Positions 1 through 48,805 of a stretch of 64,000 nucleotides of DNA are shown one piece after another. Numbering within the stretch: position 1 is the stretch's first letter; every line of letters begins with the position of its first letter. Source of the stretch: Acutalibacteraceae bacterium (GTDB lineage: Bacteria > Bacillota > Clostridia > Oscillospirales > Acutalibacteraceae). The translations under genes and the position numbers were made by a program. The notes under the pieces are model-generated. The model saw nothing but the letters and a program-made list of their open reading frames with translations, made no database searches and had not been told where the DNA came from. The stretch covers positions 90-64,089 of the forward strand of contig JAZOUK010000005.1 of the NCBI GenBank assembly GCA_045658105.1. Direction: 5' to 3'.

Positions 1-1520
1 GTATATAATCGATTTCTAGTAGAGATTTTCGAGATATTAAGACTATCTTTAATAAAAATATCATACGATACGGATGAAATTTCCTGAGTGATTTGGTTAT
101 TAACCGCGTATATTACGTCATATTCAATAATATCTGATGCATCTTGAAGTACTGTATAATTATCAATTATCCATTCGCCGTAGTCGGTAATAATTCTACT
201 TTCTTTTGGGATTTTCATAATGAAAATCTTCACAGCATTAATATATTCTTGATAAGCATTATCAATATAAAAATACTTTTTAACACCGTCCATATAGACA
301 TCATCATATAATTCGTTGTATTCTGCTAAATTTTTACATTCTTCATACGCTGCAATTTTCATCGCAATATAAGCGTTATATAGTGTTTCGAATTTTTTGA
401 TTTCACTATTGTCAAACTGACTACTAAAAACACTTGCCTTATTTCTGACACTGTTATACAAATCTGAGGCATATTGTGTAAGCATAACCGCAGATGTATA
501 CTCTGAATAATCGTATCCAAGCCATCCTTTAAACACAATATTATTAACTAAACCCACTACTGCTGTAACTGCAGAGCCATATGACTTCCATCCGTCAAGA
601 ATAGCATCGTTCGTTAGTTTCGGTAGATAGCCAATAATTTTATCATAAACTTTATCTTCAATATATGTACTGGTAAAATAAGTAACAAATCCACCAGAAA
701 GTTGTTTTTGAAGTCTTGTCATACCATTATAGAGCGTTGATGATGAACTTTGAGTATTGATAATATCCTGAATTAGTTCCATCTGAGTTTCTTGCATAGT
801 AATTGATAAAGCAAGAGATTTTGTAAAATCAACAGCATCTGTTAAATCACCTAACACTTCTGTGGTTTCGCTTAAGGTAGTATAAAGCTCAGATTTTAGC
901 GAAGGCAACTTAGGCTCTAATTCGGTACAATATTCTTCAAGGACAGCAATTGCACGATCAATAAAGTAATCATAAAGTTCTGGCTTTCCCAAATCTTTAT
1001 AATAGACCTCGTCTTCTATTACAACTTTATCAATTTTCTCAACAACACCTAAAAATTTATTAATATTCTTTATATATTTATTTTCAGTACCTACTTCTTT
1101 TGAAGCATTTAAGTTCACATCGCAAAGTTCTTCAACAAATTTTTGGTTTGCTTTATCCAGCTCATTGTTGAGTTTAAAATTTGATAAACCAATACTGTCC
1201 GATACATATTTTGCAATACCCGTTGGGTCTGATGCAATCCCTATCGATTCAAACCAAGCAGAAGCTTTAAAATGGTCGGTATTTATATATTCGTTGAGAA
1301 CGTTAGTTGTAACATTTGATGTGTCAAGCTCATATGAAATTAAATATGTATTAGTTGTTAAATAAGTAGAATACCCATAAAATAAATCGGAATAGTAGAT
1401 ATATTCCTCTTCACTAATGTTATCCTCGCTATCTTGGTCGATTGTTTCTGCCAAAGCTGTAAACGTAATACTACAAACAATCATTATAGTTGCTAATATC
1501 ACACATAATAACTTTTTCAT
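1..1520 (-). CDS. partial CDS: signal-peptide or N-terminally anchored protein of unknown function (>506 aa, C-terminus lies beyond window start)
   Basis: My own translation of the minus strand from ATG 1520..1518 stays open to position 1. It is absent from the ORF track because no stop lies in the window. The N-terminus MKKLLCVILATIMIVCSITFTALA/ETID looks like a Sec signal. Its ATG overlaps the TGA of the upstream TIR gene (ATGA at 1517-1520). Confidence 0.6.
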   Translation of the reverse strand, partial: MKKLLCVILATIMIVCSITFTALAETIDQDSEDNISEEEYIYYSDLFYGYSTYLTTNTYLISYELDTSNVTTNVLNEYINTDHFKASAWFESIGIASDPTGIAKYVSDSIGLSNFKLNNELDKANQKFVEELCDVNLNASKEVGTENKYIKNINKFLGVVEKIDKVVIEDEVYYKDLGKPELYDYFIDRAIAVLEEYCTELEPKLPSLKSELYTTLSETTEVLGDLTDAVDFTKSLALSITMQETQMELIQDIINTQSSSSTLYNGMTRLQKQLSGGFVTYFTSTYIEDKVYDKIIGYLPKLTNDAILDGWKSYGSAVTAVVGLVNNIVFKGWLGYDYSEYTSAVMLTQYASDLYNSVRNKASVFSSQFDNSEIKKFETLYNAYIAMKIAAYEECKNLAEYNELYDDVYMDGVKKYFYIDNAYQEYINAVKIFIMKIPKESRIITDYGEWIIDNYTVLQDASDIIEYDVIYAVNNQITQEISSVSYDIFIKDSLNISKISTRNRLY

Positions 1521-2206
1521 TTTCTATGCCTCACAATATTTTCTTCAAGTTTCAATAGAGTTTTTAATTGATTTATAAAGGTTCCCATATAATAATCTCT
1601 AATATAATGATTATCATAGATATTCTTGTTCATCGTAGCTTTAATTCGTTCGACCGGTACATTACCTATGCGTGGCAGATCTCGTTTTATATTGTGTATT
1701 TTAGATAGTAAAGCATTATAGTTTATATCGATATCAAATTCTACAATATTAGTAAAATTTTCATATCTCTTATCAATTAGAAATATGGGTATTGCGTTCA
1801 AAGCGGTGCCTTCGCGTATTACGGGAAGATATTTGGTTTTATTGACTCCACGAACCATCTCACCTGTAATTATGCTGTCTTCATAACCAACTCCGCCAAG
1901 TCTATTGTCTGCCTTATACTTATAGTTTGGTGTGCAAACTATAACAACATAATCACTTTTTAATATAGATTGTTCAATAGAAAATGGTACTGAATCGCCA
2001 GTTTCAATATGCCATTTATCAAATATTACGTTAACTCCATCTATGCGCATTTTTAATGCTAATTTTTCTACCCAATCAACATGTTCTTGATTATCATAAG
2101 AATATGATATAAAAACTGTTGGATTTATACCTTGAGCCAATCCAAACACCTCATTAAATACTATAATAACATTTCTCAAAAAGTGTACTTTTTGAGAAAT
2201 GTCCAA
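1517..2206 (-). CDS. TIR-domain protein
   Basis: TIR-like core: VFISYSYDNQEHVDWVEKLALKMRIDGVNVIFDKW...SDYVVIVCTPNYKYK...GGVGYEDSII...KYLPVI. The track start is TTG. An internal GAGGTG-n6-TTG start just before AQGINPTVFISYS is equally plausible. Confidence 0.75.
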   Translation of the reverse strand: MDISQKVHFLRNVIIVFNEVFGLAQGINPTVFISYSYDNQEHVDWVEKLALKMRIDGVNVIFDKWHIETGDSVPFSIEQSILKSDYVVIVCTPNYKYKADNRLGGVGYEDSIITGEMVRGVNKTKYLPVIREGTALNAIPIFLIDKRYENFTNIVEFDIDINYNALLSKIHNIKRDLPRIGNVPVERIKATMNKNIYDNHYIRDYYMGTFINQLKTLLKLEENIVRHRK

Positions 2207-2312
2207 TAATTTGAACTTGCTTTATTAAAAATATAAATCACTCCCAAATTTCAACATTTTTCCTTTTTTATATTGCGTTTACAGTAGTTTTATGGTATAA
2301 TATTGCATCATG

Positions 2313-2350
2313 AAACGGCTATCAAAAAGTACACCTTTTGATAGCCGTTT
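2313..2350. terminator. perfect 15-bp stem hairpin downstream of the resolvase gene
   Basis: AAACGGCTATCAAAA-agtacacc-TTTTGATAGCCGTTT, 3 nt after the resolvase stop. A/T runs are built into the stem, so it could act in both directions. Confidence 0.55.
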
Positions 2351-2352
2351 TA

Positions 2353-3054
<702 letters not shown>

Positions 3055-3127
3055 TCAAGAAAACATTAACAAAATGGGAACGATTATAAAAAACTAATGT
3101 AAAAAAGTAAAATCACCGAATTAAATG

Positions 3128-3169: not shown

Positions 3170-4363
3170 TTATATACCATTTATTTCTTTTTGATAACGT
3201 TGATTAGCCACCTCAACAAGAAATGTCAGTGTTGAAACTTCAGTTTCAGTAAGTGGTTTATTGTGTTGAACTATCAAATAAGAATCAAGTGCTCTAAAAA
3301 CACTAATATACATACCTTGCCAACCACAATTACATTTGATATCACCCTGTAAATAATTATCAAACTGGTTTGAACGATATTCTCTTATGTGCACTTCGGG
3401 TTTATAACTTGTTGAATATCCTAATATGCCATAATCCCAATAGAAGTGAGTTGCCTTTATATCGCTCTTTAAAATACAAAACATAAGTGCTTGTGATAAA
3501 TCTAGTTGGGTTATTTGTTTTTCTATTTCATCCAATTGTTCTACATTAAAATGGTTATATCGTAACACTGCATAGGTAGCTTCGTTTAGCTCCTCCATAT
3601 TTAAAAAGTAATCTTTTAGCGCAGTATAATGATCGGTGGTTTTTATCTTTTCAATGATATCTAAAGATAAATATTTCTCAAATATACCTATAGGAATTGG
3701 TTCTGTCATTGGATCAAACGGTATATGTGAATCAACTTCATAATCCGAAAGAGCCAAGGACAATGGATCTAACGCAATATTCATAATCAACATCATTCCA
3801 ATGGCGTATTTCAAAAAAGAAAGAAAAAGATTTGTTCGCCCCTCTTGGTCTGTGGAATTTGAAATATTGTTAGAAACATAAAAGGTATCAAATCCCTGTT
3901 TATGTATATATTTATTTGCTTTTTTCAGCAATTCATCATATTGTTCAAAGAATTCTGGGATAACAGTTTTAATCTCATTATATGCATCATTTTGGCGAAT
4001 AAGTAAATCCTTAACTGCTTTATCCGACGGAAATCTACCTTTTTCTTTCCAAAGTTCATACTTATCGGCATCTACTGCAGACAAAAGCATATTGTTCATA
4101 TTCTCTATTGACTGTCTTAAAGAATAGAACGCGCAATCGAAATAACCATCCTCGTATAGGAAAAAAGCGTGTTTTAACAGTTCTACCGATTCACTGAAAA
4201 ACATATTACAAAACATCTCGTTAAGATTCCCAGTGGTGGGTATCAATGCTCGGAGTGTGCTCAATAATTCATCATGTTCAGGCAACTGCCTTTTCACCAA
4301 AAGACTGTGATCTTGTTCACATAATAATTCTTTCCATTCGGATTTATTCATTAAATTCACCAC
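3170..4363 (-). CDS. hypothetical protein, 397 aa (possible HEPN-like helical N-terminal domain, unverified)
   Basis: Long ORF with its own terminator. No motif I can assign firmly. VELLKHAFFLYEDGYFDCAFYSLRQSIENMNN ... KKANKYIHKQG only loosely resembles HEPN helices. Start is GTG 4363 or ATG 4351. Confidence 0.55.
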   Translation of the reverse strand: MVNLMNKSEWKELLCEQDHSLLVKRQLPEHDELLSTLRALIPTTGNLNEMFCNMFFSESVELLKHAFFLYEDGYFDCAFYSLRQSIENMNNMLLSAVDADKYELWKEKGRFPSDKAVKDLLIRQNDAYNEIKTVIPEFFEQYDELLKKANKYIHKQGFDTFYVSNNISNSTDQEGRTNLFLSFLKYAIGMMLIMNIALDPLSLALSDYEVDSHIPFDPMTEPIPIGIFEKYLSLDIIEKIKTTDHYTALKDYFLNMEELNEATYAVLRYNHFNVEQLDEIEKQITQLDLSQALMFCILKSDIKATHFYWDYGILGYSTSYKPEVHIREYRSNQFDNYLQGDIKCNCGWQGMYISVFRALDSYLIVQHNKPLTETEVSTLTFLVEVANQRYQKEINGI

Positions 4364-4448
4364 GCTAATTTTTTATATTTTTCTAAATATTTCAATTTGT
4401 AACTTTAGGAGAGATAAACAACCGACTTAGTGCACGCCTTGAAGTAGT

Positions 4449-4556
4449 CCTTTACTCTTCCGCATACTCATGCGGGCGTTCTTTATAGTCTTTAACCTTA
4501 TACTCGCCGATGGTGTCATATTTGCTTGCTTTTGTTTCGGTGGGGGTGTCTTGTTT
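4449..4556 (-). pseudogene. orphan 3'-end fragment of a fic gene (direct repeat of 9740-9847)
   Basis: The minus strand encodes ..TPTETKASKYDTIGEYKVKDYKERPHEYAEE*, near-identical to the C-terminus of the Fic protein at 9743. No upstream fic coding sequence is present. Identity is ~90% at the nucleotide level. Confidence 0.75.
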
Positions 4557-4702
4557 ATTTTATAATTAATACTATTAACAATTAATTGCTTTTTTGAGCC
4601 TGTAAATTTGCGCGAATTTTATTGATGATATACGTGTCAAAATCAGGATGATTGAAAACTTTCGTGAGACTTAAGCATTATTGCAAGTTCGTTTATGCTA
4701 TA

Positions 4703-5203
4703 TCATCCCCACCAATACAAAGCTTTGTTGTCAATAGCATATCGCCGTTCTACGATTCTTCTTTTCTCATGGCAGAGCATATCATCTGACATATCAACGC
4801 AAAAAAATCTAAATTCAACGTAATTTTGTGCAATCATATCTCTGTATTTATCGATATATCTAGGATTTCTTTTCCATGATTTTGTTCTCAAGGAACTAAC
4901 ATATGTACACATTTTGCATTTATGTATGTGGAACTTTGCACTGTCGTTCCCAAACCGCCTTCTAGCCAAATATTGTTTATTGCAGTTCACGCATATATTA
5001 TCATCTGGGGTGTTTAATATATGAATTGCACTTAGGATTTCACTATATATATTTATAGTTTCAGCAACTTCTAAACATCTCCAGTTTTCATTGTTTTTTC
5101 AACCGTACAACGCCCAAACTCCTGGTTTTTCATAAAACCTCCTATTTATCTCTGTACACTTTAAAAATTTGACTTTTGATCCAATAACAATATTTTTCTC
5201 CAT
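4703..5203 (-). pseudogene. Cys-rich ORF interrupted by one in-frame TGA (5099-5101)
   Basis: ATG 5203 (AAGGA RBS) gives MEKNIVIGSKVKFLKCTEINRRFYEKPGVWALYG, then TGA. The same frame continues KNNENWRCLEVAETINIYSEI...CVNCNKQ...HKCKMC... to the stop at 4703. The track lists only the distal 95 aa. Confidence 0.5.
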
Positions 5204-5260
5204 ATAGTTTTCCTTGGTTTATTTAAATGGTTTATATCATTTTATCACAAATCTAAGCTA

Positions 5261-5291
5261 AAAGAAAGTCACACCTTGCAATTCGCATAGG
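5261..5291 (-). terminator. putative terminator after the HEPN-like gene
   Basis: CCTTGC-aattc-GCAtAGG stem followed (minus strand) by CTTTCTTT. It shares a TTGCAA..GCA.AGGC core with the hairpins at 7397 and 9661. Confidence 0.35.
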
Positions 5292-5331
5292 CGAGGTTTT
5301 ACTTATGAATTAACTTTATCACAGTGATTTA

Positions 5332-6294
5332 TCATTTTAGAAACGATTCATCTGCAACCATTGTAAATAACAAAAACAGAAGAGCTGTAATATGTATTGA
5401 ATAATAATTCATGTATGTGAAATTACAATGGGCCAAATTATTTCTTAAATTTAAGTTTGAAGCATCAAAGAGAAGAGTAACAATTTTAACAAAACTATCA
5501 TCTGCTATATCTGTAAATAATGAACTACGAATAAATGGTGTCAGTGTGAATTTGTTGCAAAGAAGGTTCTTAATATTTGAATCATTCGAAATAATATTAT
5601 ATTTTCTTAATAATGCATATTGCATATCGGAAGTTGCTTGAACACTATCAAAATAAGCTGTAGTTGTTCTATGAGAAATCATTTCATATTGATGTTGTAA
5701 AAAATCTAATAAATCATTTTCTTGTGATGTCAATACAATGTTTCCGGCAGAGATTTCTTGCTTTAATGAGTTAAGGTACTGCTTTGCATATATTCTTTTC
5801 GTATGTTCTTTAATATCCTTTTCAAACAAGGTTGCGAGAATTAAAGTTGCTCCATAGGCTGGAGATAAACCATTGTTCTTACTATTAATTAATTCATTGT
5901 ATGCATATATAAACATTTCGTTGGTACTGATTGGCCCACTAACTCCATCCTCAACGCGAGCTATACGATTTCCTTCCTTATCAAAAACATTTAAAAATAC
6001 TCCACCAAGAATTATAGCGAGATTATAAAAATAAATCATATGTGATTGTAAATCGGTAATATTCGCACCTTGTATGTTGGGCAACTGTGAATAATCAAAA
6101 GTGGCATTTTTTATATCATAATCGCACATATCTATTATTTCACCTAAAAACTTAAGCTTCTCGTCTTTGCTAGAGTAGTTTTGATAAATTGAAAAATGGT
6201 TTATCTTATCATTTATATAGGCATCACGTTCTGTTATATTAATCAAAGCCAACCCTTGTGCCAAATCAAATTTGAAATTTTTGTTAAAAAACAT
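5332..6294 (-). CDS. HEPN-type protein with C-terminal RNxxxH motif (DUF4209-like)
   Basis: C-terminal ...LNLRNNLAHCNF (R 5443-5445, H 5428-5430) fits the Rx4-6H HEPN signature and the RNxxxH(G) signature described for DUF4209. It starts 27 nt after the AbiH-like stop, with a GAGGAAGAAGGA RBS. Confidence 0.6.
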   Translation of the reverse strand: MFFNKNFKFDLAQGLALINITERDAYINDKINHFSIYQNYSSKDEKLKFLGEIIDMCDYDIKNATFDYSQLPNIQGANITDLQSHMIYFYNLAIILGGVFLNVFDKEGNRIARVEDGVSGPISTNEMFIYAYNELINSKNNGLSPAYGATLILATLFEKDIKEHTKRIYAKQYLNSLKQEISAGNIVLTSQENDLLDFLQHQYEMISHRTTTAYFDSVQATSDMQYALLRKYNIISNDSNIKNLLCNKFTLTPFIRSSLFTDIADDSFVKIVTLLFDASNLNLRNNLAHCNFTYMNYYSIHITALLFLLFTMVADESFLK

Positions 6295-6321
6295 ATTAGT
6301 TCCTTCTTCCTCTAATTATTA

Positions 6322-7341
6322 TTAAAAACCGAATACCTCTGTGTCTTGCCTTAATATTATATTCCATCCATTGCTTTGTACATATTCTAACTTTCTTCTA
6401 TGATCTTGTTCATCGTGATAATAACATATTATTTCTTTGGCTTTTATAGCAACAAACACACTCCAGTCAGCCTGACCTAAAGAATGACCTATTATATGTA
6501 CCTCATCAAATTCCTCATTGGCAAGGATCTGGATTATGGTTTTTCGATAATCAAGAAATTCTTTGCTTTTCATTTTCAGCCATTTATATAATTCTTCTTC
6601 ATTGTCTTGTGTTCTTCTTACCACATCATCAAAGAATCTTTTAATAGCGGCTCTTTCAATCAAATTATTTTCCATATCATACTCATAGTATTTTAGTCTT
6701 TCGGCCAATACATCTTTTGGTCTTCCGGTTGCTTTACTTGAGGGATATTCCGTATGAACAGCAGTAGTATCCAAACGCTCAAAAGTATCACAACCAATGA
6801 CAATTTCATCATTAATATTTCCGTGAATATGTTCTACGTTATGAAAACCATAAAGCAGTTCTATGACATTTGTATAATTGAAATTTATAACCCTTGAAGC
6901 CGAATCAAAATGCTCTTTCAAAGTTTGCATTGAGGGAAATTTAGGAATTTTAGAATCGCAGTATAGATCACGAAGATAAGACAAAAAATCTGCCTCAAAA
7001 CTAACTAACAGTAAAACTATTTTTGAGATTACTTCAATTTCTTCTTTAAATGCCTCTGACCTATAATCATAATATCCGACCTCACCATTTTGATCTGTGC
7101 CGTAGGTGTCAATTATTTCTTCAACGATTTCATCCACTTCTACTTCAGTGCCGATTTCATCGAGTTTGTCTAATATCAGTTCTTTAAATCGATCTTCAAC
7201 ACTATACCAACAATTATTTTTGTTTTTGAAAACCGAGTATTTATCAGCATAGTTAGTAGAATATTTAACAAAATCATCAAAAGCTGTATTAAGCCCATGT
7301 GCTTTATCAAAGCCATTGCCTGTAATGATTAGTTTTTTCAA
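6322..7341 (-). CDS. AbiH-family abortive-infection-like protein
   Basis: MKKLIITGNGFDKAHGLNTAFDDF at the N-terminus, INFNYTNVIELL, VEHIHGNI, and VHIIGHSLGQADWSVF. This is the AbiH motif series as I recall it. Confidence 0.7.
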   Translation of the reverse strand: MKKLIITGNGFDKAHGLNTAFDDFVKYSTNYADKYSVFKNKNNCWYSVEDRFKELILDKLDEIGTEVEVDEIVEEIIDTYGTDQNGEVGYYDYRSEAFKEEIEVISKIVLLLVSFEADFLSYLRDLYCDSKIPKFPSMQTLKEHFDSASRVINFNYTNVIELLYGFHNVEHIHGNINDEIVIGCDTFERLDTTAVHTEYPSSKATGRPKDVLAERLKYYEYDMENNLIERAAIKRFFDDVVRRTQDNEEELYKWLKMKSKEFLDYRKTIIQILANEEFDEVHIIGHSLGQADWSVFVAIKAKEIICYYHDEQDHRRKLEYVQSNGWNIILRQDTEVFGF

Positions 7342-7385
7342 ACGATCTTCACCTCAATTCGACAATATTATATCATAAACTTATG

Positions 7386-7425
7386 TAAAAAGAAATCCCC
7401 GCTTGCAAGATTTGCAGAGGCGGGG
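7386..7425 (-). terminator. rho-independent terminator after the NACHT gene
   Basis: CCCCGC..GCAA-gat-TTGC..GCGGGG, followed on the minus strand by ATTTCTTTTT. Confidence 0.6.
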
Positions 7426-7473
7426 CAGTAAACATTGCATAATGTGAAGATCAATTTACCAAAAACAAAAAAT

Positions 7474-9585
7474 TTACCTTCTGTTACTAAGTTTAAATTG
7501 TTTGTTCAAAGATAAAATCTCTTTCTTAATTAAAAACATACACTCAAGTCGCTTTTGGCTCGCACCGTTAAAGGTAATGAAGCACTTGGAGACGATTCTT
7601 TTTTCTTTAAAAGAAAGACGTTTACTTCTGTTGTACATAAATGTATAGATTGTGGCTAAATCAAACAGTCGGAAAAAGTACTGCTTTTTTGTTTTTCCGT
7701 CCATTTTTGAAATGTCTGTTGGTAATTTTTTAGAAAGACGTGTAATTCGTTTGTCAAAAGCGTTATGGCAAGATATGCATTTATCATCATCCTTAAAATT
7801 GTATATAGTTTTACCAATAACATCACCATAGAATATAAGTGTATGTGATCTATTAGCAAGATCATAGTTGGCATTATATGTGTTGTTTAGGAATGGTAGC
7901 ATACGTTCAACATAATCTAATTCTATATTCTCTCCTGCTAAAAAGGACGAACTAATTGCACAGCAACGCTTTAATACAACACTATAATAGTCTAAATCTG
8001 AGGTTTGTTTTATATTAGAATCATTCCAATAAATAAACTCCAAAAAATCAACAACAGCGGGATTTTGCAATCCTAAACGTCCAAGACGAAAAACTATCTC
8101 GTACTTAAGAGAGAAAAACTCCATAGGATTCAAAACCGGAAACTCACATATAAATTTATTGTTAGGGAATTCAAAATATTTTTTGAGTTCTTCTTTTGTG
8201 TTTTCATCCAAGGTGTAATAATAGATACTGCAAAGTTTTTCGAAAAAATATTCCTTTATAGTATTATCATTCGTATTTATTGCATCTGTAATGAAATCCG
8301 CATAGTCATTCGAGTAGTTTTGGTAAAAGATAGAAAGTGCTTTTTTGTCAATTTGATTATTCCTCGTTTGAAGCAAATAGTGTTTTGCCACAAAATACTC
8401 AAAAAATGTCTCATGGGTAAAGGTGAGTTTGTCACCGGAAGTCTTTTTGAGTATTGTTGAAATGAAATGTATTTCAACAGGAAGGCTAAATTGCTTTTTG
8501 TCACTCGAAAAGAAAGCAAAAACTGCTTCTGCGATTTCTTCTCCTATTTTATCCAAATCAACTTTTGTAATAGGATCGTTATTTCTTCTGCAGTAGGTTT
8601 TAATAAGACACGAGATAAAATTGTCATAAAAGTCAAACTTATTGTTTGTATTAATTGAAACACTTGGGTGCGTCTGCAGTTTCATGTAGACAAACAGTTT
8701 CATTAAAAGCGGACTATTAATATTTTTTAACCAAGACGTATCATTCAAGATTTGATTTTTAATATCCGAAATTTTATTGTAAGAATCATACTGTATGTTG
8801 TTTAAAGTCTTCAAAAGATTCGCAGCATAATTATTTAACATTTTAGAGGACCAACTCATTATTTGAACATTTCTTTTTTTGATTCTCATAAAAGAATTGT
8901 TGCGGAGAATATATTTTTGCGCAAAGTCCGGACGCGATGTTATTTTTAAATCAACTTTTTTTGCAACTATAATAATACAATCAACAAATTCGGACAGCCG
9001 TTTTGCACGGCTTTCGCCGATTTCATCAACACCATCTAAGTACAAAATAACCTGTTTATATTTAGTAGCCATTAATTTGTTTTTTAGTTCATCTTGCATA
9101 GTTGTGTCGTCAAGCAAGGATATTAACTCAACAGAGTTAAAAAATAAATGTACTTTTTTCCCTATGTTTTTTTTAGAAAAATTCTTGATGAAATCATATT
9201 TTAATAAAGTGGATTTTCCACAGCCCGCAGGACCAGTCAAAATATATGCTTTATCCAATAAAGATTTGACTTTAAAAGCTTTTCTATCGCTAGAAATAGG
9301 CATGTTTTTATAAAAGAAATACTTTTGTTCACTAGGCTCATCGAAAAAAGTTGGTTCCCTTTCAATTTGTTCCTTTGTTCGCAAACCCATATTCTCAAAA
9401 TACTGCCTTGCATCTTTTGCTTCTTGCCCCAGTGAGCGATGCTCAAAAATAAATTTAAATACAGCCCATAAACCACCAACAATTATTGTTACTAATACTG
9501 CGACAGACGCAAAATCCCCAAACCAGTCTTTGTTTTCTACGAAAAAATGTTTTACTGCGTCCCATATGGCTTTCAAACGTTCCAT
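7474..9585 (-). CDS. membrane-anchored NACHT/STAND NTPase
   Basis: Walker A is ILTGPAGCGKSTLL and Walker B is VILYLDGVDEIGE. Also present: KITSRPDF and FTHETFFEYFVAKHYL (NACHT winged-helix-like). The N-terminal hydrophobic helix is FGDFASVAVLVTIIVGGLWAVFKFIF. I chose the ATG at 9585 (AGGAGAA RBS); the track starts at 9651. Confidence 0.8.
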   Translation of the reverse strand: MERLKAIWDAVKHFFVENKDWFGDFASVAVLVTIIVGGLWAVFKFIFEHRSLGQEAKDARQYFENMGLRTKEQIEREPTFFDEPSEQKYFFYKNMPISSDRKAFKVKSLLDKAYILTGPAGCGKSTLLKYDFIKNFSKKNIGKKVHLFFNSVELISLLDDTTMQDELKNKLMATKYKQVILYLDGVDEIGESRAKRLSEFVDCIIIVAKKVDLKITSRPDFAQKYILRNNSFMRIKKRNVQIMSWSSKMLNNYAANLLKTLNNIQYDSYNKISDIKNQILNDTSWLKNINSPLLMKLFVYMKLQTHPSVSINTNNKFDFYDNFISCLIKTYCRRNNDPITKVDLDKIGEEIAEAVFAFFSSDKKQFSLPVEIHFISTILKKTSGDKLTFTHETFFEYFVAKHYLLQTRNNQIDKKALSIFYQNYSNDYADFITDAINTNDNTIKEYFFEKLCSIYYYTLDENTKEELKKYFEFPNNKFICEFPVLNPMEFFSLKYEIVFRLGRLGLQNPAVVDFLEFIYWNDSNIKQTSDLDYYSVVLKRCCAISSSFLAGENIELDYVERMLPFLNNTYNANYDLANRSHTLIFYGDVIGKTIYNFKDDDKCISCHNAFDKRITRLSKKLPTDISKMDGKTKKQYFFRLFDLATIYTFMYNRSKRLSFKEKRIVSKCFITFNGASQKRLECMFLIKKEILSLNKQFKLSNRR

Positions 9586-9660
9586 TTCTTTTCTCCTGTT
9601 AAGCAATTTAATTTCTATAATCAATATAACATAAATGATGCGATTAATCAATTATAAGAA

Positions 9661-9713
9661 GTTACTATTCAACGCACCCTTTGCAATTTGCAGAGGCCGC
9701 GTTGGGTAGTAAC
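9661..9713 (-). terminator. long imperfect hairpin between fic and the NACHT gene
   Basis: GTTACTATTCAACGC...TTGCAATTTGCAGAGGC...GCGTTGGGTAGTAAC (13 of 15 arm positions pair). It lies 30 nt after the fic stop. Confidence 0.35.
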
Positions 9714-9742
9714 AGTCAATATTCACTTTTCAATGCTTATCT

Positions 9743-10456
9743 TTACTCATCCGTATATTCATGCGGGCGTTCTTTATAATCTTTAACTTTGTATTCGCCG
9801 ATGGTGTCGTATTTGCTTGCTTTTGTTTCGGTGGGTGTATTGGTTTCATTATCTTCTCCGAGGATTGCATCGAAGAAGATGCGTTCAAGGTATTCGTATT
9901 TTGAATAAATACCTTGGGATGCCCAAACGAGAGCGTTGCGAACGTAGGCTGAGTTTGTTTTAAATAACTCGTGTTCAACTTCAAATCCCATTGATTTTGC
10001 AAGAAGTACAGCAAACACTATAACAGTTCTTGTATTACCTTCACGGAAGGGGTGGGTTTGCCAAATACTTGCGATAATACGAACAAGCTTGAAAACGATA
10101 TCCTTATCGTTATCGCCGGTTCTTTTGAGCTTGGCGATTTCTTTCATTGTTTCGTTTAGTTGTTTTTTAATTTCTTTAGGATAAGCATAACGAACGGTAT
10201 CACCGCCGAGAACGTCTTCGTATTTTACCATTTGAATGGTACGAAAATCTCCCGCCCAATCAAATATTTGGCCGAAAATATTGCGGTGGATATCCTGCAA
10301 AGTTTCGGTGTTAAACTTATCGTACTTATAATCATAAATTGCTGCCATAGAAAGACCGGTAATATCAGCCTCTGCTTTGCGCAGTAATTCCGAATCTTTT
10401 ATATCTGCTAAATTTTTAAGGATGTCAACATCATCATATAAATAAGGGTCACGCAT
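9743..10456 (-). CDS. fic: Fic/DOC family protein (putative AMPylase toxin)
   Basis: Fic motif HPFREGNTRTV (10025-10054). The GGAGGT RBS lies inside the 3' end of the upstream gene. Confidence 0.9.
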   Translation of the reverse strand: MRDPYLYDDVDILKNLADIKDSELLRKAEADITGLSMAAIYDYKYDKFNTETLQDIHRNIFGQIFDWAGDFRTIQMVKYEDVLGGDTVRYAYPKEIKKQLNETMKEIAKLKRTGDNDKDIVFKLVRIIASIWQTHPFREGNTRTVIVFAVLLAKSMGFEVEHELFKTNSAYVRNALVWASQGIYSKYEYLERIFFDAILGEDNETNTPTETKASKYDTIGEYKVKDYKERPHEYTDE

Positions 10457-10459
10457 TTG

Positions 10460-10981
10460 TTATACCTCCGTTACAAAACCGTATCTTCTAAGCGTTTGCT
10501 CGAACACAGACAAAAATGTAATATTGCCGTTTTTCCAATTGGCAAGGTCGGTTTTAACCTTATCACTTACAGGAACACCCTCGATTGATGTCATAGCATC
10601 TGAAAAGGAAATGCGTTTTTCTTTTTCGTCAGCAGATATACTATCCATACCGCTTGTGAGTTTAAGCATTTTTAATTTGCGTAGCAAAGCTTTATCCAAT
10701 AACTCTGCGGCGGTTTCGATATCCGCAAGTCTTAATATAACTTCGGGTAGTTCTGCCTCATATTCTTTCCTTAATAAAATTTGCTTTGCAATTTCATCTG
10801 CTTCTTCAGCCTTGATGTATTTGCTCTCAACAGTATCGCCGTTACGGGTTTGCAAATATAAATATTGCTTACCGCCAATCTTCTTTTTAGAAATATATCC
10901 CTTTGGCAAAACACTAAGCTTTTGCTCAATTTCAAGTTTTGTGGCAAGTAATTCTTTGTATTCAAAAATAATATCAGTCAT
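10460..10981 (-). CDS. putative Fic antitoxin with C-terminal VbhA-like inhibitory domain
   Basis: C-terminal SFSDAMTSIEGVPVSDKVKTDLANWKNGNITF resembles the (S/T)xxxE(G/N) inhibitory helix of VbhA-type antitoxins (spacing is not exact). It sits 3 nt upstream of fic. A ~110-aa N-terminal extension has unknown function. Confidence 0.55.
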   Translation of the reverse strand: MTDIIFEYKELLATKLEIEQKLSVLPKGYISKKKIGGKQYLYLQTRNGDTVESKYIKAEEADEIAKQILLRKEYEAELPEVILRLADIETAAELLDKALLRKLKMLKLTSGMDSISADEKEKRISFSDAMTSIEGVPVSDKVKTDLANWKNGNITFLSVFEQTLRRYGFVTEV

Positions 10982-11297: not shown

Positions 11298-11789
11298 TCA
11301 AGCGGTTTCGTCAGCTGCTCCGCCCTTGCCATTCCACTTTGTTGGTTCTGCTTCACCGAAACGTTGATAGTGAACTATTTCTCGCTGTCTCAAAAATTTT
11401 AGTGGGTCGAGTATATCAGGATCATCAATTAGCCTTAATAAGTTATCATAAGTCACTCTTGCTTTTTGCTCTGCTGCTAAATCTTCATGCAAATCGGCAA
11501 GAATGTCTCCTTTTGCCTGAATATATTCTGCTCTCCACGGAATACCCGATGCCGCAACTGGAAATACTGCATTTGTATGATCCACAAAATATTTATCAAA
11601 ACCACTTTCCTCAATCTGTTTTTCTGTTAGATTACGAGTTAACTGATGAACCATTGCACTTACCATTTCCATATGTGCAAGTTCTTCTGTACCTATATCT
11701 GTTAGCATTCCTTTAACCTCATTAAAAGGTTGTGAATACCTTTGGGTCAAGTAACGCATTGAAGCACCTAACTCGCCGTCCGGTCCGCC
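11298..11789 (-). pseudogene. cotJC: cotJC 3' segment (Mn-catalase-family spore coat protein) separated from its 5' end by the prophage
   Basis: The in-frame sequence upstream of the track ORF reads GGPDGELGASMRYLTQRYSQPF..GTEELAHMEMV.., typical of CotJC from about residue 30. The reading frame is cut by phage sequence at the CCGCC core (11785-11789). Confidence 0.85.
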
Positions 11790-11810: not shown

Positions 11811-11924
11811 CTTTGATAACACTTTTAAACCCACAGGAAAATTTTGACAACAATAGTTGGTATTGAAATGGTTTCCTTTGATTTATTCTAATAACACGAT
11901 TTGTCAAAAATCGAGGTTTTAGTT

Positions 11925-12329
11925 ATGTTTACAAAGGAATTATCAAGTAATCTTTTGAAAATTTTAAACGAGAAAAAGTTAACGGTTTCTGCATTGTCTG
12001 AGCTTACTCATATGTCACGGAATCATATGAATAATATAATCAGTCAAAAGCAGGTACTCTCGGTTGAAATGCTTGAAAACATTTGCTCAGGCTTAGAGGT
12101 CAATCCGGACGAGCTACTTCTAAGTGATAAGTCGAAACAAAAAGATAAATCCAAGCCAATGAAAGTTACACAAATTGTATGCAGTAAAGGAAGCAATAAT
12201 ACAATGCATTCACCAATATGCCCTGACTGCGGCAAGAAGCTGATAAAAGACAATCAGGCGTTTTGTGATAAATGCGGAAGACGTTTGAGCTGGCGTGAAT
12301 ATAGTAAAGCCGAAATGTTATACTTATGA
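11925..12329 (+). CDS. XRE-family HTH protein with C-terminal zinc ribbon
   Basis: LNEKKLTVSALSELTHMSRNHMNNIISQKQ (HTH) and CPDCGKKLIKDNQAFCDKCGRRLSW. ATG 11925 follows a GAGG. The track ORF starts at TTG 11901. Confidence 0.7.
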   Translation: MFTKELSSNLLKILNEKKLTVSALSELTHMSRNHMNNIISQKQVLSVEMLENICSGLEVNPDELLLSDKSKQKDKSKPMKVTQIVCSKGSNNTMHSPICPDCGKKLIKDNQAFCDKCGRRLSWREYSKAEMLYL

Positions 12330-14110: not shown

Positions 14111-14145
14111 CCGCCCCACTCCGAAAGGAATGAGGCGGATTTTTT
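14111..14145. terminator. bidirectional terminator between convergent genes
   Basis: CCGCCCCACTCC-gaaa-GGAATGAGGCGG flanked by AAAAAATA and ATTTTTT. Confidence 0.6.
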
Positions 14146-17100
14146 AGTTTTTAACCTGATTAATATAATACTGTATCAGTTTATCATAATCGTCTAAAAA
14201 CCGCATTTCTGCTTTAGATAAGAAATATTCCTGCGCCAATTCCTCCAAATCCTGCTCACGCATCTTAGAGTAAACAGATTTTGTAAGTATCGGGTCACCG
14301 TTTTTCTTTTCACCAACCATTGCGGATAAGGTGTCGTAATCATATTTACGTTCCGACTTTACCTTATCATAAGCGAACTGATATATTTTACTTATCGCAG
14401 CAACTTTTTCATCATCAGAAAGCTTCGTATATTCCTGACTATCGAAAAGCTGACCAAGCAATTCTGCGCTGTATTTTCCTGTATTGCGCTGAAAATCTGC
14501 TTTTTCTTCGGGGGTAAATATCATCTTGTTACCCTTAACTGTGAAATAATTCGGGGCTGTTCGTGGTATGACAGAATTTTCACCTGTTGATTTGTAAAGC
14601 TTATATATCTCCCCGACAACCTCGCCTGAGCTTTTAGGATACGTGTTCCACGGTGAAGCAAATGCTTCCCATTCGTCAAGATATTGCGTGTTCTTAACTT
14701 CTTCACCCAAAACATTAACCTGATTAGGTAATGTAGTTCTGAGCCCTGGTATTTTCGCTATGACTTTATTTATAGCTGATTTAAAACTATTTGTATTGTC
14801 ATAAGACGTTCTGCGGTATTCGTCAAAATAGCTTGCAGTTTGAGACCAACGTTGTGGAACAAATGCTGCCGGCTCTGCCAAAGCTGCAGTTGTTAAGGCT
14901 TCTACTATATCCTCCGAAGAAAATAAATCATATAAACTTTGTAAAAACGACTGTTGCGAAAAAGCTTTACCACCTGCCTTAATCGCCTCTACTATTGCGT
15001 TCGCTACATCGCCATCAGGATTTTCTTCTTGACTTTCCATAAAATCCGCTACAACTGCCAAAATCGAACCGAATGGTTGTGCCCAATCATAAGTAACATT
15101 CACACCGAAAAATTCTATCGAATATGGCGGAATACCCATAATGTACTTTTCATAATTTGAAGCATCTTTATCGTCATCATCATCGCCCGAAAGTTTGACA
15201 ACGCCTAACGCCGCTCCTATAGCAACAAGCGCATAAACTGTTGTTCCTGTTATAGCATTACTCATACTGCGTACAAATTCTCTTTGTAACTGAGGATTAA
15301 ATTTGCCTTTATCTATAGCATTTTTAAGCTTTTTAGCGTTAACTCCTGCCGATACAAAGCCAACAGGGGAGAAGCTTCCAATCGCTTTAGCTATGTTTGA
15401 AGGTGTTTTTATAAACTTCATAACAAAGTCGCCGAGTCCGTAAGAAGTTCCGGGTATGTGCACCATATCGTTGAGCGCCGACTTAATTTTACTCGCGGAC
15501 CTTGTAAGCTTATTATCGTCTTGCCAAGTTCTTTGTAATGCTTCCTGCTTAGCTACTTCTATCATTTCGGGTGTAGGTATTTCCAAATTATTGAGCCTCA
15601 GTTGGTTATTCAATGAATTTGTCATCCACATTTCAAAGAAAGGTCTGTCTCCTACTTCTAAGCAGAAAGAAGTAAAATTATCCATCTTATTAAGAGCCTT
15701 TGCAATAGCATCTAATTGTTTGCCCAACTTTCCGTTGTGATGCTCGTTAAAATTCTTACCTGTCGAAGCATTAAGCTCAAAACGGTTTAAATCCTCTTGC
15801 TTTGTGCGTATACCTCTTTTGAAATCGTCCCAAGATTCGTAAACACCTTTTCCAAAGCTCTTTGTGCTTTCTTTTAGACGTTCTCTGCCATCCTTTGTAA
15901 ATACGTGACCGTACATACCTGTAGACCTGTATTCAGTCTTTTTTGATACTGCTTTATCAATAGCAGTTCCGAAAAAGTCAGATGCAATAAACAACGGTGT
16001 CATACCAACGTTACCGTTTATGTTGCGGAGTATTGTTTTTAAATTTAAAAGCATATTTGACCGTTGAAGTGCCCTGATAGATTGTCCGGCTTCGGGCGGA
16101 ATCTTATCCTGAATAATATTGCATATTTTTCCAAGTGCTATAGCTTTAGGTCTTGTATTATCGTCAAATAATGCAGCTTGCAGGGTATAACGGCGAATTA
16201 ATTCAATGTCATCCTCTGTGAGCTTGAGTTTATCAGCATTTTTATCTATCCATTTTTGGGTTTTGATTTCTGCCAATTCCTCAAAAGCTTTATCCAATTG
16301 TTTTTGGGCATACAATACCATTGCATTCGGTTCAAGTCTTCCGAGTATCGAGAAAATCTGCACCTGCTGACCGCCTGCTGTTCCAAAGGCTCTTACTCTT
16401 TCGGCCGCGGCGGCAGCACTTTCATAATCACCCACACGCTGATACCTGTCCATAAGGATAAATCCTACAGCCGTATCAATAAGGCTTGCGTGTTCAGGGT
16501 CTTTGTTCCACCATTGATTTACGTAGCTTTGTCCTCCCTCGTCAAGCTCCTTTGCCGCTTTCTCAAGAGTTTCCTTGTTTGTGACCGATTTATATTTTTG
16601 AATAAAGCTATCGTCTCGCACTTCGTCCTTAAAACGTTCGTCAAAAATATCCGATTCTAAAAGGCTGCCGTAAAATTTGCTTTCCTTATCACCGTCCGAT
16701 TCGCCCTTTTTGCGTGAGTGGTGAGGTGTGGTGTTTGCATCTTCTTCGGTTAAATTCGCTATCTCTGCGGGGTTGAGAGGCTTTTGTTTTTTAACCATAT
16801 CTAAATACTCTTGCCTTGTAATCTCGCCGTTCTCGTACTGTTCAAGCAAACTTTCTGCAGAATTATCGACAGGAATGGAATAATCGTCCGTTTCCTGCAT
16901 AGAATTTTTCTTGACAGTAGGCTCAATATCGTCTATAATGTCAGTAGAAGATGTTTCGGCTCTACGGTCTTGTGCCGTATGCGAGGCATCTTCTATTTCT
17001 ATTTCTTGAAGTCCTACAATATCATACAACAATGCAACTCCTGATTTTGTTGTTCCCACAATAATGTCCGCAGAATATCCTCTATCATCCACCTTGAAAT

Positions 17101-20100: not shown

Positions 20101-20431
20101 ATCTTTCTTGTGCCGATTTATAAGCCTTTTCGGCCTCGTTCATTTCTTGCTTTAATTGTTTTTCGGCAACATACCCCTCATCATAAGTCTTTGACGGAAT
20201 AGTTGTCCTGAGCTCGTCCGCCTTAATAAGCTGTCGCATATTTGCAGCAGGATTTTTCAGGGCGGTATTCGCGATTGAGGTGACATTGTTTTTTAGTTGC
20301 TTTATTGCTTGCGATTGACTTCCTATATATTCGCCTGTGGTAATAGAAACACCGGATTGAGTATTAACCCTTGAATTTGATTGCTGCGCTTTAGGTGCGC
20401 TAATAGATGCGCCTTTTACAATTTCAACCAT
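14144..20431 (-). CDS. 2095-aa virion-associated multidomain (polyvalent-type / tape-measure-like) protein with zincin HExxH motif
   Basis: Uninterrupted 6.3-kb ORF at the end of the late operon. Gly/Ala-rich hydrophobic segments (GAVTLGLSAAANS..GGIAAGAFEGFFEKF..GASGALMGFGFGSLGSAVG). HEITH at 17897-17911 in FIFKHEITHYLKR. Confidence 0.75.
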   Translation of the reverse strand: MVEIVKGASISAPKAQQSNSRVNTQSGVSITTGEYIGSQSQAIKQLKNNVTSIANTALKNPAANMRQLIKADELRTTIPSKTYDEGYVAEKQLKQEMNEAEKAYKSAQERFNIDPITKDLAELGWSNNKKVQPYKEKYEAKKKEYEDFKKVRYYSAFPDGEVVSTNPKKAKYGSFVLGVDWTYEYINNINDAQTYIETKGKNSNAYPLFHKYSFMTDREIGIYNYIYAEQGAKEATEFLKFLEEDLDARETKKIAKDNSKFAKEHPYLSAAASVATNLAASGEHILNSVDYAITGNLKTNKAAMSTSILRGALPEKVDWEIGKWDAFDFVYNTTMSGVDSLVVAPTGTVGAVTLGLSAAANSTNDILERGGTNEQAFWGGIAAGAFEGFFEKFSIGQLKTMQEGTVTGLKDFAKNLGKSMLTNASEETATEVANVLYDYATNGGISQYAMLVEEYMQDPKIDEKTAKKKAAQKLGLQILEAGASGALMGFGFGSLGSAVGYSNYKNSLNKERITLEEFANRNSEIWRNVDYSDNDTKTAIMNETHNRMVAEGNVVKVSKETQEKVGESYPDLRSMKKKERTPILKEAMDTLKNNLRQFLNGFKNQGFEFEVNGKVLEATLYNTGINEVLEKITQEKANMLYSTDEIFKNSCYLYSTPDYDGDPNVYRWNYFYTPVQIGEETVGVRIAVRDLAKQGESQIYNWGIKKDVSLDGVGDDLKNRKSNDVSSDTSFNPTIPQNGSGVNNNIPDSTENNFQNSSGGVDDIASFGDIDTVKGKHLNKAQQEEIREIGEKLGRKVIYEDFYELDKFKGKKKIPDGYIDKDGNIHINFYAKRPVYFIFKHEITHYLKRALPAYTDFMDMAFNSKAFSIWLHSKGYSSINEFKAEIMDTYSEVRGFDETKCYDEILADFVGGRLFGGERAINAELMNALEPKHKKSFLDVIKNIIDYLKSKFSENAKVNYEINRIEKEFIKVYNEAVNVKENSNSDGEVSYSIKKSTDGHKFVQVENKTISDTDSAKDIATTLSNIIKNKFNDFVNVSGQKIGVNSRTAREWQRSKDAQYLLANEKQKYTDKINAFNNADELLKAARNYIGEEIKHQRSDNFVEFARGIVDFKVDDRGYSADIIVGTTKSGVALLYDIVGLQEIEIEDASHTAQDRRAETSSTDIIDDIEPTVKKNSMQETDDYSIPVDNSAESLLEQYENGEITRQEYLDMVKKQKPLNPAEIANLTEEDANTTPHHSRKKGESDGDKESKFYGSLLESDIFDERFKDEVRDDSFIQKYKSVTNKETLEKAAKELDEGGQSYVNQWWNKDPEHASLIDTAVGFILMDRYQRVGDYESAAAAAERVRAFGTAGGQQVQIFSILGRLEPNAMVLYAQKQLDKAFEELAEIKTQKWIDKNADKLKLTEDDIELIRRYTLQAALFDDNTRPKAIALGKICNIIQDKIPPEAGQSIRALQRSNMLLNLKTILRNINGNVGMTPLFIASDFFGTAIDKAVSKKTEYRSTGMYGHVFTKDGRERLKESTKSFGKGVYESWDDFKRGIRTKQEDLNRFELNASTGKNFNEHHNGKLGKQLDAIAKALNKMDNFTSFCLEVGDRPFFEMWMTNSLNNQLRLNNLEIPTPEMIEVAKQEALQRTWQDDNKLTRSASKIKSALNDMVHIPGTSYGLGDFVMKFIKTPSNIAKAIGSFSPVGFVSAGVNAKKLKNAIDKGKFNPQLQREFVRSMSNAITGTTVYALVAIGAALGVVKLSGDDDDDKDASNYEKYIMGIPPYSIEFFGVNVTYDWAQPFGSILAVVADFMESQEENPDGDVANAIVEAIKAGGKAFSQQSFLQSLYDLFSSEDIVEALTTAALAEPAAFVPQRWSQTASYFDEYRRTSYDNTNSFKSAINKVIAKIPGLRTTLPNQVNVLGEEVKNTQYLDEWEAFASPWNTYPKSSGEVVGEIYKLYKSTGENSVIPRTAPNYFTVKGNKMIFTPEEKADFQRNTGKYSAELLGQLFDSQEYTKLSDDEKVAAISKIYQFAYDKVKSERKYDYDTLSAMVGEKKNGDPILTKSVYSKMREQDLEELAQEYFLSKAEMRFLDDYDKLIQYYINQVKN

Positions 20432-48730: not shown

Positions 48731-48805
48731 ATATATTACGCTTTCTTGACTTTATTTCAGCCCCCTATATCATTAAATTATTAATAATATAGGGGGAACC
48801 ACAAA

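Follow-up and report, generated by a model that had tools for sequence, protein, structure and literature searches.

A truncated SEFIR-type TIR gene between an invertible promoter and a giant secreted-protein gene in gut and rumen Clostridia

Results

Gene order at the locus

We investigated a stretch of 64,000 nucleotides (nt) from an Acutalibacteraceae bacterium (assembly GCA_045658105.1, contig JAZOUK010000005.1, positions 90 to 64,089 of the forward strand), referred to as the window. The left edge of the window carries a short gene of the TIR/SEFIR superfamily, followed by the 5' part of a gene for a large secreted protein, the partner. An earlier note on this DNA had drawn attention to the pair and implied that the partner takes the place of a known Thoeris-type effector. 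Upstream of the TIR gene, two recombination sites enclose a segment with a predicted promoter, and a small serine recombinase gene lies directly beyond. The module consists of the following features, with lengths in base pairs (bp) or amino acids (aa).

2353..2967, minus strand: small serine recombinase, 204 aa, ATG at 2967 with GGAGG; the open reading frame (ORF) reaches 3042
2311..2352: recombination site A, recombinase-proximal, palindrome AAACGGCTATCAAAAAGT-AC-ACCTTTTGATAGCCGTTT, from repeat search
2273..2301, plus strand: extended -10 promoter (predicted), TTGCGT-17 nt-TGgTATAAT, inside the invertible segment
2187..2330: invertible segment of 144 bp between the central dinucleotides, from comparison with locus L052
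2169..2202: recombination site B, operon-proximal, perfect palindrome ACATTTCTCAAAAAGT-GT-ACTTTTTGAGAAATGT, from repeat search
1517..2140, minus strand: short SEFIR-type TIR gene, 207 aa and stop, TTG start at 2140-2138, GAGG at 2149-2152
1517..1520, minus strand: ATGA overlap of the TIR stop TGA (1519-1517) and the partner ATG (1520-1518), read as tcat on the plus strand
1449..1520, minus strand: partner signal peptide (predicted), residues 1-24, with MKK, a hydrophobic core and ALA before E
1..1520, minus strand: 5' part of the partner gene, 506 codons to position 3 by translation, open at the window edge

The stop of the TIR gene and the start of the partner gene overlap as the earlier note had read them, with ATGA at 1517-1520 and a downstream frame open for 506 codons. 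A GAGG motif (1529-1532) lies 8 nt 5' of the partner ATG. The ORF listed for the TIR gene is longer (229 aa, 2206..1517, minus strand), and its first 22 codons cross a recombination site. The TTG at 2140, 8 nt past a GAGG, is in all likelihood the true start, and the gene caller took the same start in the 98%-identical homologue at locus L052. The TIR protein would then be 207 aa long.

A short TIR of the SEFIR type

Searches of Pfam, PADLOC and PDB sequences upheld the TIR assignment. In Pfam, hmmscan ranks TIR_2 (5e-15; 56.5 bits, cut-off 28) slightly above SEFIR (1e-12; 48.8 bits, cut-off 23), and the match to profiles of the TIR clan places the protein in the TIR/SEFIR superfamily (Pfam clan CL0173). 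The PADLOC profile bSEFIR matches at 4.5e-53, spanning profile positions 37-198 of 412. Among PDB sequences, 5Y8F, the SEFIR protein of Bacillus cereus, scores best (9e-19), with ordinary bacterial TIRs at 4e-4 or worse. The SEFIR/TIR domain covers residues ~7-130, and a clade-specific tail of ~75 aa behind it ends the protein without the C-terminal half of the bSEFIR profile. Hydropathy gave no export signal in the TIR. The motifs FISYS..D and GG.GYE are invariant in the TIR alignment, as are D16 and E87 (207-aa numbering), and the C-terminal tail is kept across the clade. The ratio of nonsynonymous to synonymous substitutions (dN/dS) is 0.09-0.35 for the TIR. All appreciably diverged pairs fall at 0.09-0.26, with dS up to ~2.5, and two near-identical pairs are noisier and reach 0.35. 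The N-terminal domain of the partner has a dN/dS of 0.08-0.26. By these ratios, both the TIR and the partner N-domain are under purifying selection.

The partner and its family

The partner starts with MKKLLCVILATIMIVCSITFTALA/E, continuing ETID. By hydropathy, the only hydrophobic stretch is at residues 1-27, with an A-L-A motif behind it, and there is no second membrane segment. Cleavage of the signal peptide is predicted from the A-x-A rule. The earlier note was right to see a signal or anchor sequence here and a remainder rich in Tyr, Asp and Asn (Y 9.1%, D 7.7% and N 6.8% of the mature protein). Its remark that no SIR2, SLOG or Macro motif is visible also stood. The partner had no match in Pfam, PADLOC or NCBIfam, and none to SLOG, Macro, SIR2 or SAVED. 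The fragment opens with the signal peptide, continues through an all-alpha N-terminal domain of ~440 aa that is conserved in the family, and runs into the first part of a beta-rich region.

A word-indexed search for the partner family gave only four relatives, and an exhaustive profile search was used next. The profile search retrieved 403 cluster representatives at E<=1e-3, mostly of 900-2,300 aa, and more than 100 of these bear the ~440-aa N-terminal region at the protein start. A scan of species-representative genomes yielded 19 loci, all in metagenome-assembled genomes of Clostridia from gut or rumen (Acutalibacteraceae, Oscillospiraceae, Lachnospiraceae and Agathobacter). Every family member has an N-terminal signal peptide. 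Full-length relatives add beta-rich repeats and a calcium-type motif, DYDGDGLxDNxDP, and further modules include InlB B-repeats, Big_3 and CUB-like domains. BspA-type leucine-rich repeat (LRR) or dockerin modules are also listed among full-length members. Two proteins served as stand-ins for the unfinished partner: the nearest full-length relative, P0191 (1,168 aa, 81% identity), and the protein at locus L025 (1,821 aa, 66% identical). No CWB2 or other anchor was matched in the window fragment, P0191 or the L025 protein. Judged by its relatives, the partner belongs to an unannotated family of giant proteins, exported and adhesin-like, that occurs in Clostridia of gut and rumen.

AlphaFold2 modeling of the partner placed helices up to about residue 435 and strands from about residue 450. 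The mean predicted local distance difference test (pLDDT) score was 58.6 with five sequences and 66.5 with 18 sequences, and both runs, at modest confidence, gave an all-alpha N-domain with strands behind it. Two Foldseek searches of the model against the PDB returned nothing at E<=0.001, with TM-scores <0.2, so the description of the partner as a protein of unmatched fold held. The ClyA-family alpha-pore-forming toxins MakA, SmhB and AhlB stood among the non-significant matches, which makes them a lead and not evidence. Kinship of the N-domain with ClyA-type pore-forming toxins was dropped because these appearances were at noise level. Where the model is least confident, residues 277-334 (window ~540-690) form a helix pair, SYGSAVTAVVGLVNNIVF, that is conserved and moderately hydrophobic.

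An invertible switch observed in both orientations

The serine recombinase matches Pfam Resolvase (6e-26) together with HTH_7, and in the PDB it matches Sin/Bin3 (4e-29), gamma-delta resolvase and a Gin-type DNA invertase (4e-13). Homologous serine recombinases hold the same position at loci L023, L024, L052 and L013. Given its adjacency, the recombinase is presumed to be the invertase of the switch. The palindromes at 2169-2202 and 2313-2350 have a common core, TCAAAAAGT-NN-ACTTTTTGA. The central dinucleotide is GT at 2185-2186 (plus strand) in site B, a crossover position confirmed by L052, and AC at 2331-2332 in site A. The cores GT and AC are reverse complements and serine recombinases act with a 2-bp stagger, therefore the two sites are inverted relative to each other. 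The half-site CTATCAAAAgGT resembles the hix half-site, TTATCAAAAACC. An adjacent small serine recombinase and two inverted palindromic sites characterize serine-invertase invertons, and the window contains both. As assembled, site A forms a terminator-like hairpin of 17 pairs followed by a T-run on the plus strand. The predicted promoter inside the segment faces away from the TIR operon and toward this hairpin. Its -35 hexamer has three of six matches, and a generic promoter scan did not list it.

The switch was found inverted at L052, a locus reached through P0191, the closest relative of the partner. L052 has the recombinase, the 207-aa TIR, the partner and the ATGA overlap as in the window. 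Window positions 2176-2341 match L052 9179-9344 in inverted orientation (98.2% identity, 166 nt, E 1e-79, blastn). Around the inverted segment, window 194-3068 is collinear with L052 8458-11327, at 88% over 2.8 kb. Flipping the window in silico brings 264 of 270 positions into agreement with L052, compared to 200 of 273 as assembled. The intergenic sequence of L052 agreed exactly with the prediction for the flipped window. The promoter at L052 faces the TIR, and both sites are hybrid, imperfect palindromes. The junction sequences are GGCTATCAAAAGGTGTACTTTTTGATAGCC and ATTTCTCAAAAAGTACACTTTTTGAGAAAT in the OFF state and GGCTATCAAAAGGTGTACTTTTTGAGAAAT and GGCTATCAAAAAGTACACTTTTTGAGAAAT in the ON state. 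The switch is present in both orientations in nature, with breakpoints at the predicted crossovers, in a comparison of two related elements rather than one population. Judging from consensus elements, the window would be OFF and L052 ON.

The two loci are mosaics of each other. The switch and the TIR are 98-99% identical (TIR dS 0.04), and the partner N-domains are 86% identical at the amino acid level (dS 0.37). At the DNA level, homology ends where the N-domain does (194) and, on the other side, a little upstream of the recombinase (3068). The stop at the N-domain end indicates that the C-terminal body of the surface protein was swapped like a cassette.

Wherever sequence upstream of a TIR is available, a recombinase gene lies before the TIR in the same orientation. 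The recombinase is of the serine type at the window, L023, L024 and L052, and a tyrosine recombinase of 280 aa at the L025, L030 and L035 groups and at L051. A regular expression search found paired sites of the form CAAAAnGT-NN-nCnTTTTGA at four serine-type loci, with centres 136-147 bp apart and reverse-complementary cores, either GT/AC or AA/TT (the latter at L024 and L013). The position of the promoter is conserved in the serine-type switches, with the -10 hexamer 28-30 nt from a site core. L024 and L013 have called TG-extended promoters 28-29 nt from the gene-proximal core, facing the operon, and the window promoter lies 30 nt from the recombinase-proximal core. Promoters point toward the operon at L024, L013 and L052 and away from it at the window and L023. 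The switch interior of the window, aligned in both orientations, is too diverged from those of L024 and L013, and only L013 leaned to the flipped state, by ~2 standard deviations.

Tyrosine-type loci have perfect inverted repeats of 23-25 nt flanking 233-237 bp, and the segment holds a strong TTTACA-17-TGnTATAAT promoter directed back at the recombinase. All five tyrosine switches (L025, L030, L035, L051 and L053) were assembled with the promoter toward the recombinase, which suggests that OFF is the majority state of these switches in the sampled communities. No orientation polymorphism was seen among the tyrosine-recombinase groups, with contigs collinear within and between groups.

One-sided linkage of TIR and secreted protein

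The short TIR clade comprises the six closest clusters (~204-255 aa as called) and one from the metagenome scan, at identities of 59-99%. Eight loci have genomic context: the window, L023, L024, L052, the L025, L030 and L035 groups, and L051. The TIR gene stands directly before a giant signal-peptide protein in all eight. The two genes overlap by 4 nt at L023, L026, L027 and L052, and a gap of 2 nt separates the TIR from the downstream gene at L024, L025, L030, L035 and L051. Because an overlap or 2-nt gap recurs in eight of eight loci, the coupling is not a matter of chance. The loci are related by descent and not fully independent. Distant SEFIR homologues in viral contigs are single genes of 300-940 aa without a secreted neighbor, therefore the linkage to secreted proteins is specific to this clade.

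The protein behind the TIR belongs to the partner family at the window, L023, L024, L052 and L025-27 (family profile A1, E 1e-195 to 1e-214 for the loci other than the window). At L030-34, L035-41 and L051, the TIR precedes an unrelated protein of 1,670-1,826 aa with BspA LRR and dockerin modules and without the A1 N-domain. Two more conserved exported genes follow this LRR/dockerin protein at L030 and L035, therefore the operon there has at least four genes. The first encodes 882-982 aa with Big_2, a hyaluronate-lyase N-beta domain and a C-terminal membrane anchor, and the second encodes DUF5640.

From the partner side, the TIR was found at none of 23 partner-family loci (tblastn against 22 loci and likewise L053, whose partner is 63% identical). 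This zero first looked like an absence of linkage, a view overturned by the searches from the TIR side. The earlier note had stated that its reading would fall if the partner were a common surface protein lacking conserved linkage to TIR genes. Such linkage is indeed absent when counted over partner genes (0 of 23) and is complete when counted over TIR genes (eight of eight).

Two loci show variations of the TIR slot. The TIR copy at L051 (1890-2503) has an in-frame stop, TAG for a conserved Trp codon, and a frameshift, which may reflect either genuine decay or a fault of the assembly. Beside it, the recombinase, inverted repeats and beginning of the LRR-type gene downstream are intact. Locus L004 carries the closest genome-derived homologue of the partner (57% identity), and another small gene fills the slot of the TIR there. 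This gene (9357-10004) encodes 215 aa with several hydrophobic segments and no family match, is ATGA-coupled to the secreted-protein gene, and has an imperfect inverted repeat upstream. None of the small ORFs before TIR-less partner genes at L004, L005, L017, L002 and L020 is similar to the TIR or to another of them.

The same kinds of switches precede partner genes that have no TIR. L013 combines a homologous serine recombinase (74% nt identity), paired sites and an ON-facing promoter with a partner-family gene. L012 and L053 have a 280-aa tyrosine recombinase and inverted repeats directly before partner-family genes, and the L012 recombinase is 80-88% identical at the nt level to the TIR-linked ones. 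Exact inverted repeats of 12-18 nt flanking 79-266 bp were found at six of the 23 TIR-less partner loci, ending 66-86 nt before the start codon in five of the six. Repeats of these lengths were reached in none of 100 shuffles. Switches in front of TIR-less partner genes imply that phase-variable control is recurrent in this surface-protein family. The TIR would then be an optional insert between the switch and the surface-protein gene.

Genomic surroundings

The module lies at the left window edge beside a defence-island-like run, which two further genes separate from a prophage.

3170-10981, minus strand: defence-island-like run upstream of the recombinase, with a DUF5677-like protein (397 aa), DUF4209 (320 aa), Fic (237 aa) and an unannotated 173-aa ORF
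3170-10981, minus strand: AbiH in the same run, 339 aa; Pfam 2e-30, PADLOC 3.5e-17
3170-10981, minus strand: NACHT/STAND-like NTPase in the same run, 725 aa; weak matches, no PADLOC match
11298-11759 and 11901-12329: truncated Mn-catalase, matching profile positions 40-190 of 284, and a helix-turn-helix (HTH)/zinc-ribbon gene
~14000-51400: prophage with terminase, portal and integrase, also helicase and RecT
14144-20431: LPD3-containing polyvalent protein of the prophage, 2,095 aa
23979-25811: P22-like portal of the prophage
27426-29126: weak match to the tropism determinant Mtd_N in the prophage
32593-33990: terminase of the prophage
48140-49507: repressor and M78 peptidase pair of the prophage
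49900-51336: large serine integrase of the prophage

Chromosomal genes begin at ~53 kb (oxaloacetate decarboxylase, OPT, MutS2, RecO, Era, YbeY and PhoH). At L052, the Mn-catalase is intact (220 aa) and lies, together with a similar HTH/zinc-ribbon gene, across the TIR-partner module from where the window has them, and no DNA-level homology between the window and L052 was detected at the Mn-catalase/HTH region. The TIR-recombinase-partner module had no close match in GTDB species genomes, IMG/VR, annotated phages or plasmids. The exact products of the TIR and recombinase genes were both absent from the protein records consulted.

Discussion

A probable phase-variable operon of a TIR and a surface protein

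The gene structure, the domains, the gene order, the inverted sites and both natural orientations of the switch are observed. The feature common to the loci is a recombinase and an invertible promoter upstream of the TIR, to which the earlier note did not refer. We consider it probable that the module is a phase-variable operon, which co-expresses a truncated bSEFIR-type TIR with a giant surface protein, and that the two proteins are co-regulated rather than engaged in signaling. The recombinase would flip the 144-bp segment, and the promoter inside it, between two hix-like sites. In the OFF state, the promoter would fire away from the operon into the terminator hairpin of site A, with site B providing a second perfect hairpin before the TIR. 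In the ON state, represented by L052, the promoter would face the operon and both long hairpins would become imperfect hybrids. A single mRNA would then yield two translationally coupled proteins. The first would be the cytosolic TIR of 207 aa, by homology an NAD+-degrading enzyme of abortive infection. The second would be a giant Sec-exported protein with an all-alpha N-domain, a beta-rich region and, as in full-length relatives, adhesin-like repeats. Such an arrangement would limit a costly, suicide-type defence to the subpopulation displaying the surface protein. NADase and anti-phage activity of the TIR, the surface location of the partner and the independence of the two proteins are inferred. 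The defence-gene neighborhoods fit an immune role of the TIR, with AbiH and a STAND-like NTPase in the window, DarT/NADAR at L035 and ParE at L025.

Several points weigh against this interpretation. A weaker promoter-like match, TTGATA-17-TATTAT (2325-2297), lies on the operon strand and overlaps the switch, and the assignment of ON and OFF is drawn from consensus promoters. With the C-terminal half of bSEFIR missing, autonomous sensing and NADase activity of the TIR are putative. The partner model reached a pLDDT of only 66.5 and has no significant Foldseek match. A fully independent defence gene would be expected to occur elsewhere too, at least in some members of the clade. The confinement of the TIR to this slot in all eight loci hints at a functional tie beyond co-regulation, and the slot stays constant through swaps of both recombinase type and surface-protein family.

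Alternative explanations

The constancy of the slot is the starting point of the alternative that survives best. The TIR could be functionally coupled to the surface protein without direct signaling, guarding the ON phase of the operon. The adhesin-like protein may expose a phage receptor or cluster clonal cells, a setting in which abortive infection pays. A variant is that the surface protein itself blocks phage, resulting in a two-layer phase-variable defence. CwpV offers a precedent as a phase-variable surface protein of Clostridia that blocks phage DNA injection (PMC4737114). The TIR clade occurs in this slot only, and the slot was kept through the recombinase swap between the window (serine) and L025 (tyrosine), where TIR and partner have diverged to a similar degree. 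It was also kept through the swap of the downstream gene from the A1-type protein of L025 to the LRR/dockerin protein of L030 and L035, across which the upstream DNA is ~79% identical. This evidence is purely correlative, though, and one ancestral arrangement stands behind all eight loci. The TIR at L051 has a stop and a frameshift next to an intact start of the downstream gene, and most partner-family genes are without a TIR, some of them behind the same switches. We regard a guarding role as rather unlikely. In its strongest form, evolution would have wired a truncated SEFIR/TIR to the ON phase of inverton surface-protein operons as a dedicated 'phase guard', a proposal to which we give the same low weight. 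Abortive infection would then be confined to the subpopulation that is adhesive, decorated at its surface and possibly exposed to phage, and the TIR would keep its slot while the recombinase type and the surface-protein family change around it.

The co-regulated operon also accounts for the pair better than the reading implied by the earlier note, a stand-in for a Thoeris-type effector, which was not supported. A Thoeris-like system of two genes would have the TIR produce a nucleotide signal and the large partner act as a dedicated membrane or extracytoplasmic effector or sensor. The tight translational coupling speaks for such a relay, as does the pairing with an A1-type partner at the window, L023, L024, L052 and the L025 group, and new Thoeris types with transmembrane effectors are on record (10.64898/2025.12.03.692087). 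However, the partner has one N-terminal hydrophobic segment with A-x-A, no cytoplasmic nucleotide-binding domain, and no match to SLOG, Macro, SIR2, SAVED or any other Pfam or PADLOC profile. Since the partner has only a cleavable-looking signal peptide, no cytoplasmic portion would be left to receive a TIR signal. The TIR is absent from all 23 partner-family loci and is also paired with an unrelated LRR/dockerin protein. Full-length relatives carry modules of the adhesin type (InlB B-repeat, Big_3, CUB, dockerin and BspA LRR). A Thoeris-like relay is improbable because the partner is wholly exported, replaceable by an unrelated protein and usually without a TIR. Signal exchange between the TIR and the partner is most likely absent.

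A host-directed pair is a shade less probable still. Interference with host signaling has been proposed for bacterial Tcp proteins. A commensal could similarly combine an adhesin with a TIR/SEFIR protein disturbing Toll-like receptor or interleukin-17 signaling. All loci come from gut or rumen Clostridia, some downstream proteins have modules of kinds that typically bind host or matrix (BspA-type LRR, Ig-like and dockerin), and phase variation is typical for host-interaction factors. The TIR, however, has no export signal, its closest characterized relatives are bSEFIR and the B. cereus SEFIR rather than Tcp-type proteins, and phage-defence and toxin-antitoxin genes lie nearby. Least probable of all is a neutral hitch-hiker, a truncated bSEFIR remnant merely carrying the ribosome to the next start codon, as the short match to the profile (37-198 of 412 positions) and the disrupted copy at L051 might suggest, given that the TIR has a dN/dS of 0.09-0.26 in appreciably diverged pairs, invariant FISYS..D and GG.GYE motifs and a conserved C-terminal tail.

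Implications

Discussions of TIR/SEFIR immune enzymes usually treat them as sensors that are present constitutively. A phase-variable operon would instead confine a SEFIR enzyme to a stochastic subpopulation tied to a surface phenotype. This would bear on how costly suicide defences can be afforded and on why structured populations favor abortive infection. The switch is compact and defined by sequence, with two sites of 34-38 bp, 144 bp between them and an adjacent recombinase of 204 aa, and both of its states occur naturally in uncultured Clostridia of the gut. If our interpretation is correct, ~400 unannotated giant secreted proteins with an unmatched all-alpha N-domain join the phase-variable surface proteins of the gut. 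Promoters that invert in front of surface proteins were known before, as were SEFIR defence genes. In the literature, we found no report of a TIR/SEFIR gene that an inverton controls or that has a secreted protein as its partner.

Comparison with known systems

The Mpi system of Bacteroides fragilis is a serine-invertase promoter-inversion system of the same design as the switch described here. The Hin/hix and Gin/gix systems (PMC2427008, PMC3798978) also share with the window a small serine recombinase, paired inverted palindromic sites of ~26-36 bp, a crossover at the central dinucleotide and a promoter within the invertible segment. The window segment is 144 bp long with the recombinase gene outside, unlike the ~1 kb segment of Hin. 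By sequence, the window recombinase is nearer to Sin/Bin3 than to Gin.

bSEFIR is a single-gene anti-phage system described from Bacillus sp. NIO-1130 (Millman et al. 2022 preprint, 10.1101/2022.05.11.491447). It shields B. subtilis from phi29 and uses the SEFIR domain at its N-terminus to deplete NAD+ (10.1101/2022.05.11.491447; 10.1101/2024.02.11.579819). Members were selected for an N-terminal domain matching SEFIR better than generic TIR by HHsearch (10.1101/2022.05.11.491447). Phage protection and NAD+ depletion by the reference protein depend on a conserved Asp, D40. For the window TIR, the PADLOC and PDB matches favor SEFIR over generic TIR, and Pfam leans slightly to TIR_2. The window TIR resembles bSEFIR in its N-terminal SEFIR-type domain, in the FISYS..D and GGVGxE motifs and in the adjoining defence genes. 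It differs in having 207 aa and lacking the C-terminal half of the 412-position profile. The short TIR is also never a lone gene, unlike the stand-alone bSEFIR. It is the first gene before a giant secreted protein in eight of eight loci, behind an invertible promoter.

Thoeris pairs a ThsB TIR with a ThsA-type effector, and the module has in common with it a small TIR-only protein gene adjoining a second gene. The second gene here differs in encoding a giant exported protein without the cytosolic signal-binding and killing domains of a Thoeris effector, and no nucleotide-sensing domain was found. Unlike in Thoeris, co-occurrence is not reciprocal. The linkage is one-sided, seen in eight of eight loci from the TIR side with two unrelated and interchangeable partner families, and in none of 23 from the partner side.

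In Clostridioides difficile, likewise a member of the Clostridia, the cwpV/RecV switch (PMC4737114) is a short promoter or leader segment that a recombinase flips before a large surface protein with a signal peptide. With cwpV/RecV and the flagellar and cmr switches, the module shares a hairpin or terminator logic set by orientation. CwpV itself is anti-phage (PMC4737114). The partner is unrelated to CwpV, and of the CwpV-type combination of signal peptide, CWB2 and C-terminal repeats it has the signal peptide and no CWB2 match. The module further differs from cwpV/RecV in having the invertase gene beside the switch, of the serine type or, in sister loci, the 280-aa tyrosine type, and in placing a TIR gene between the switch and the surface-protein gene.

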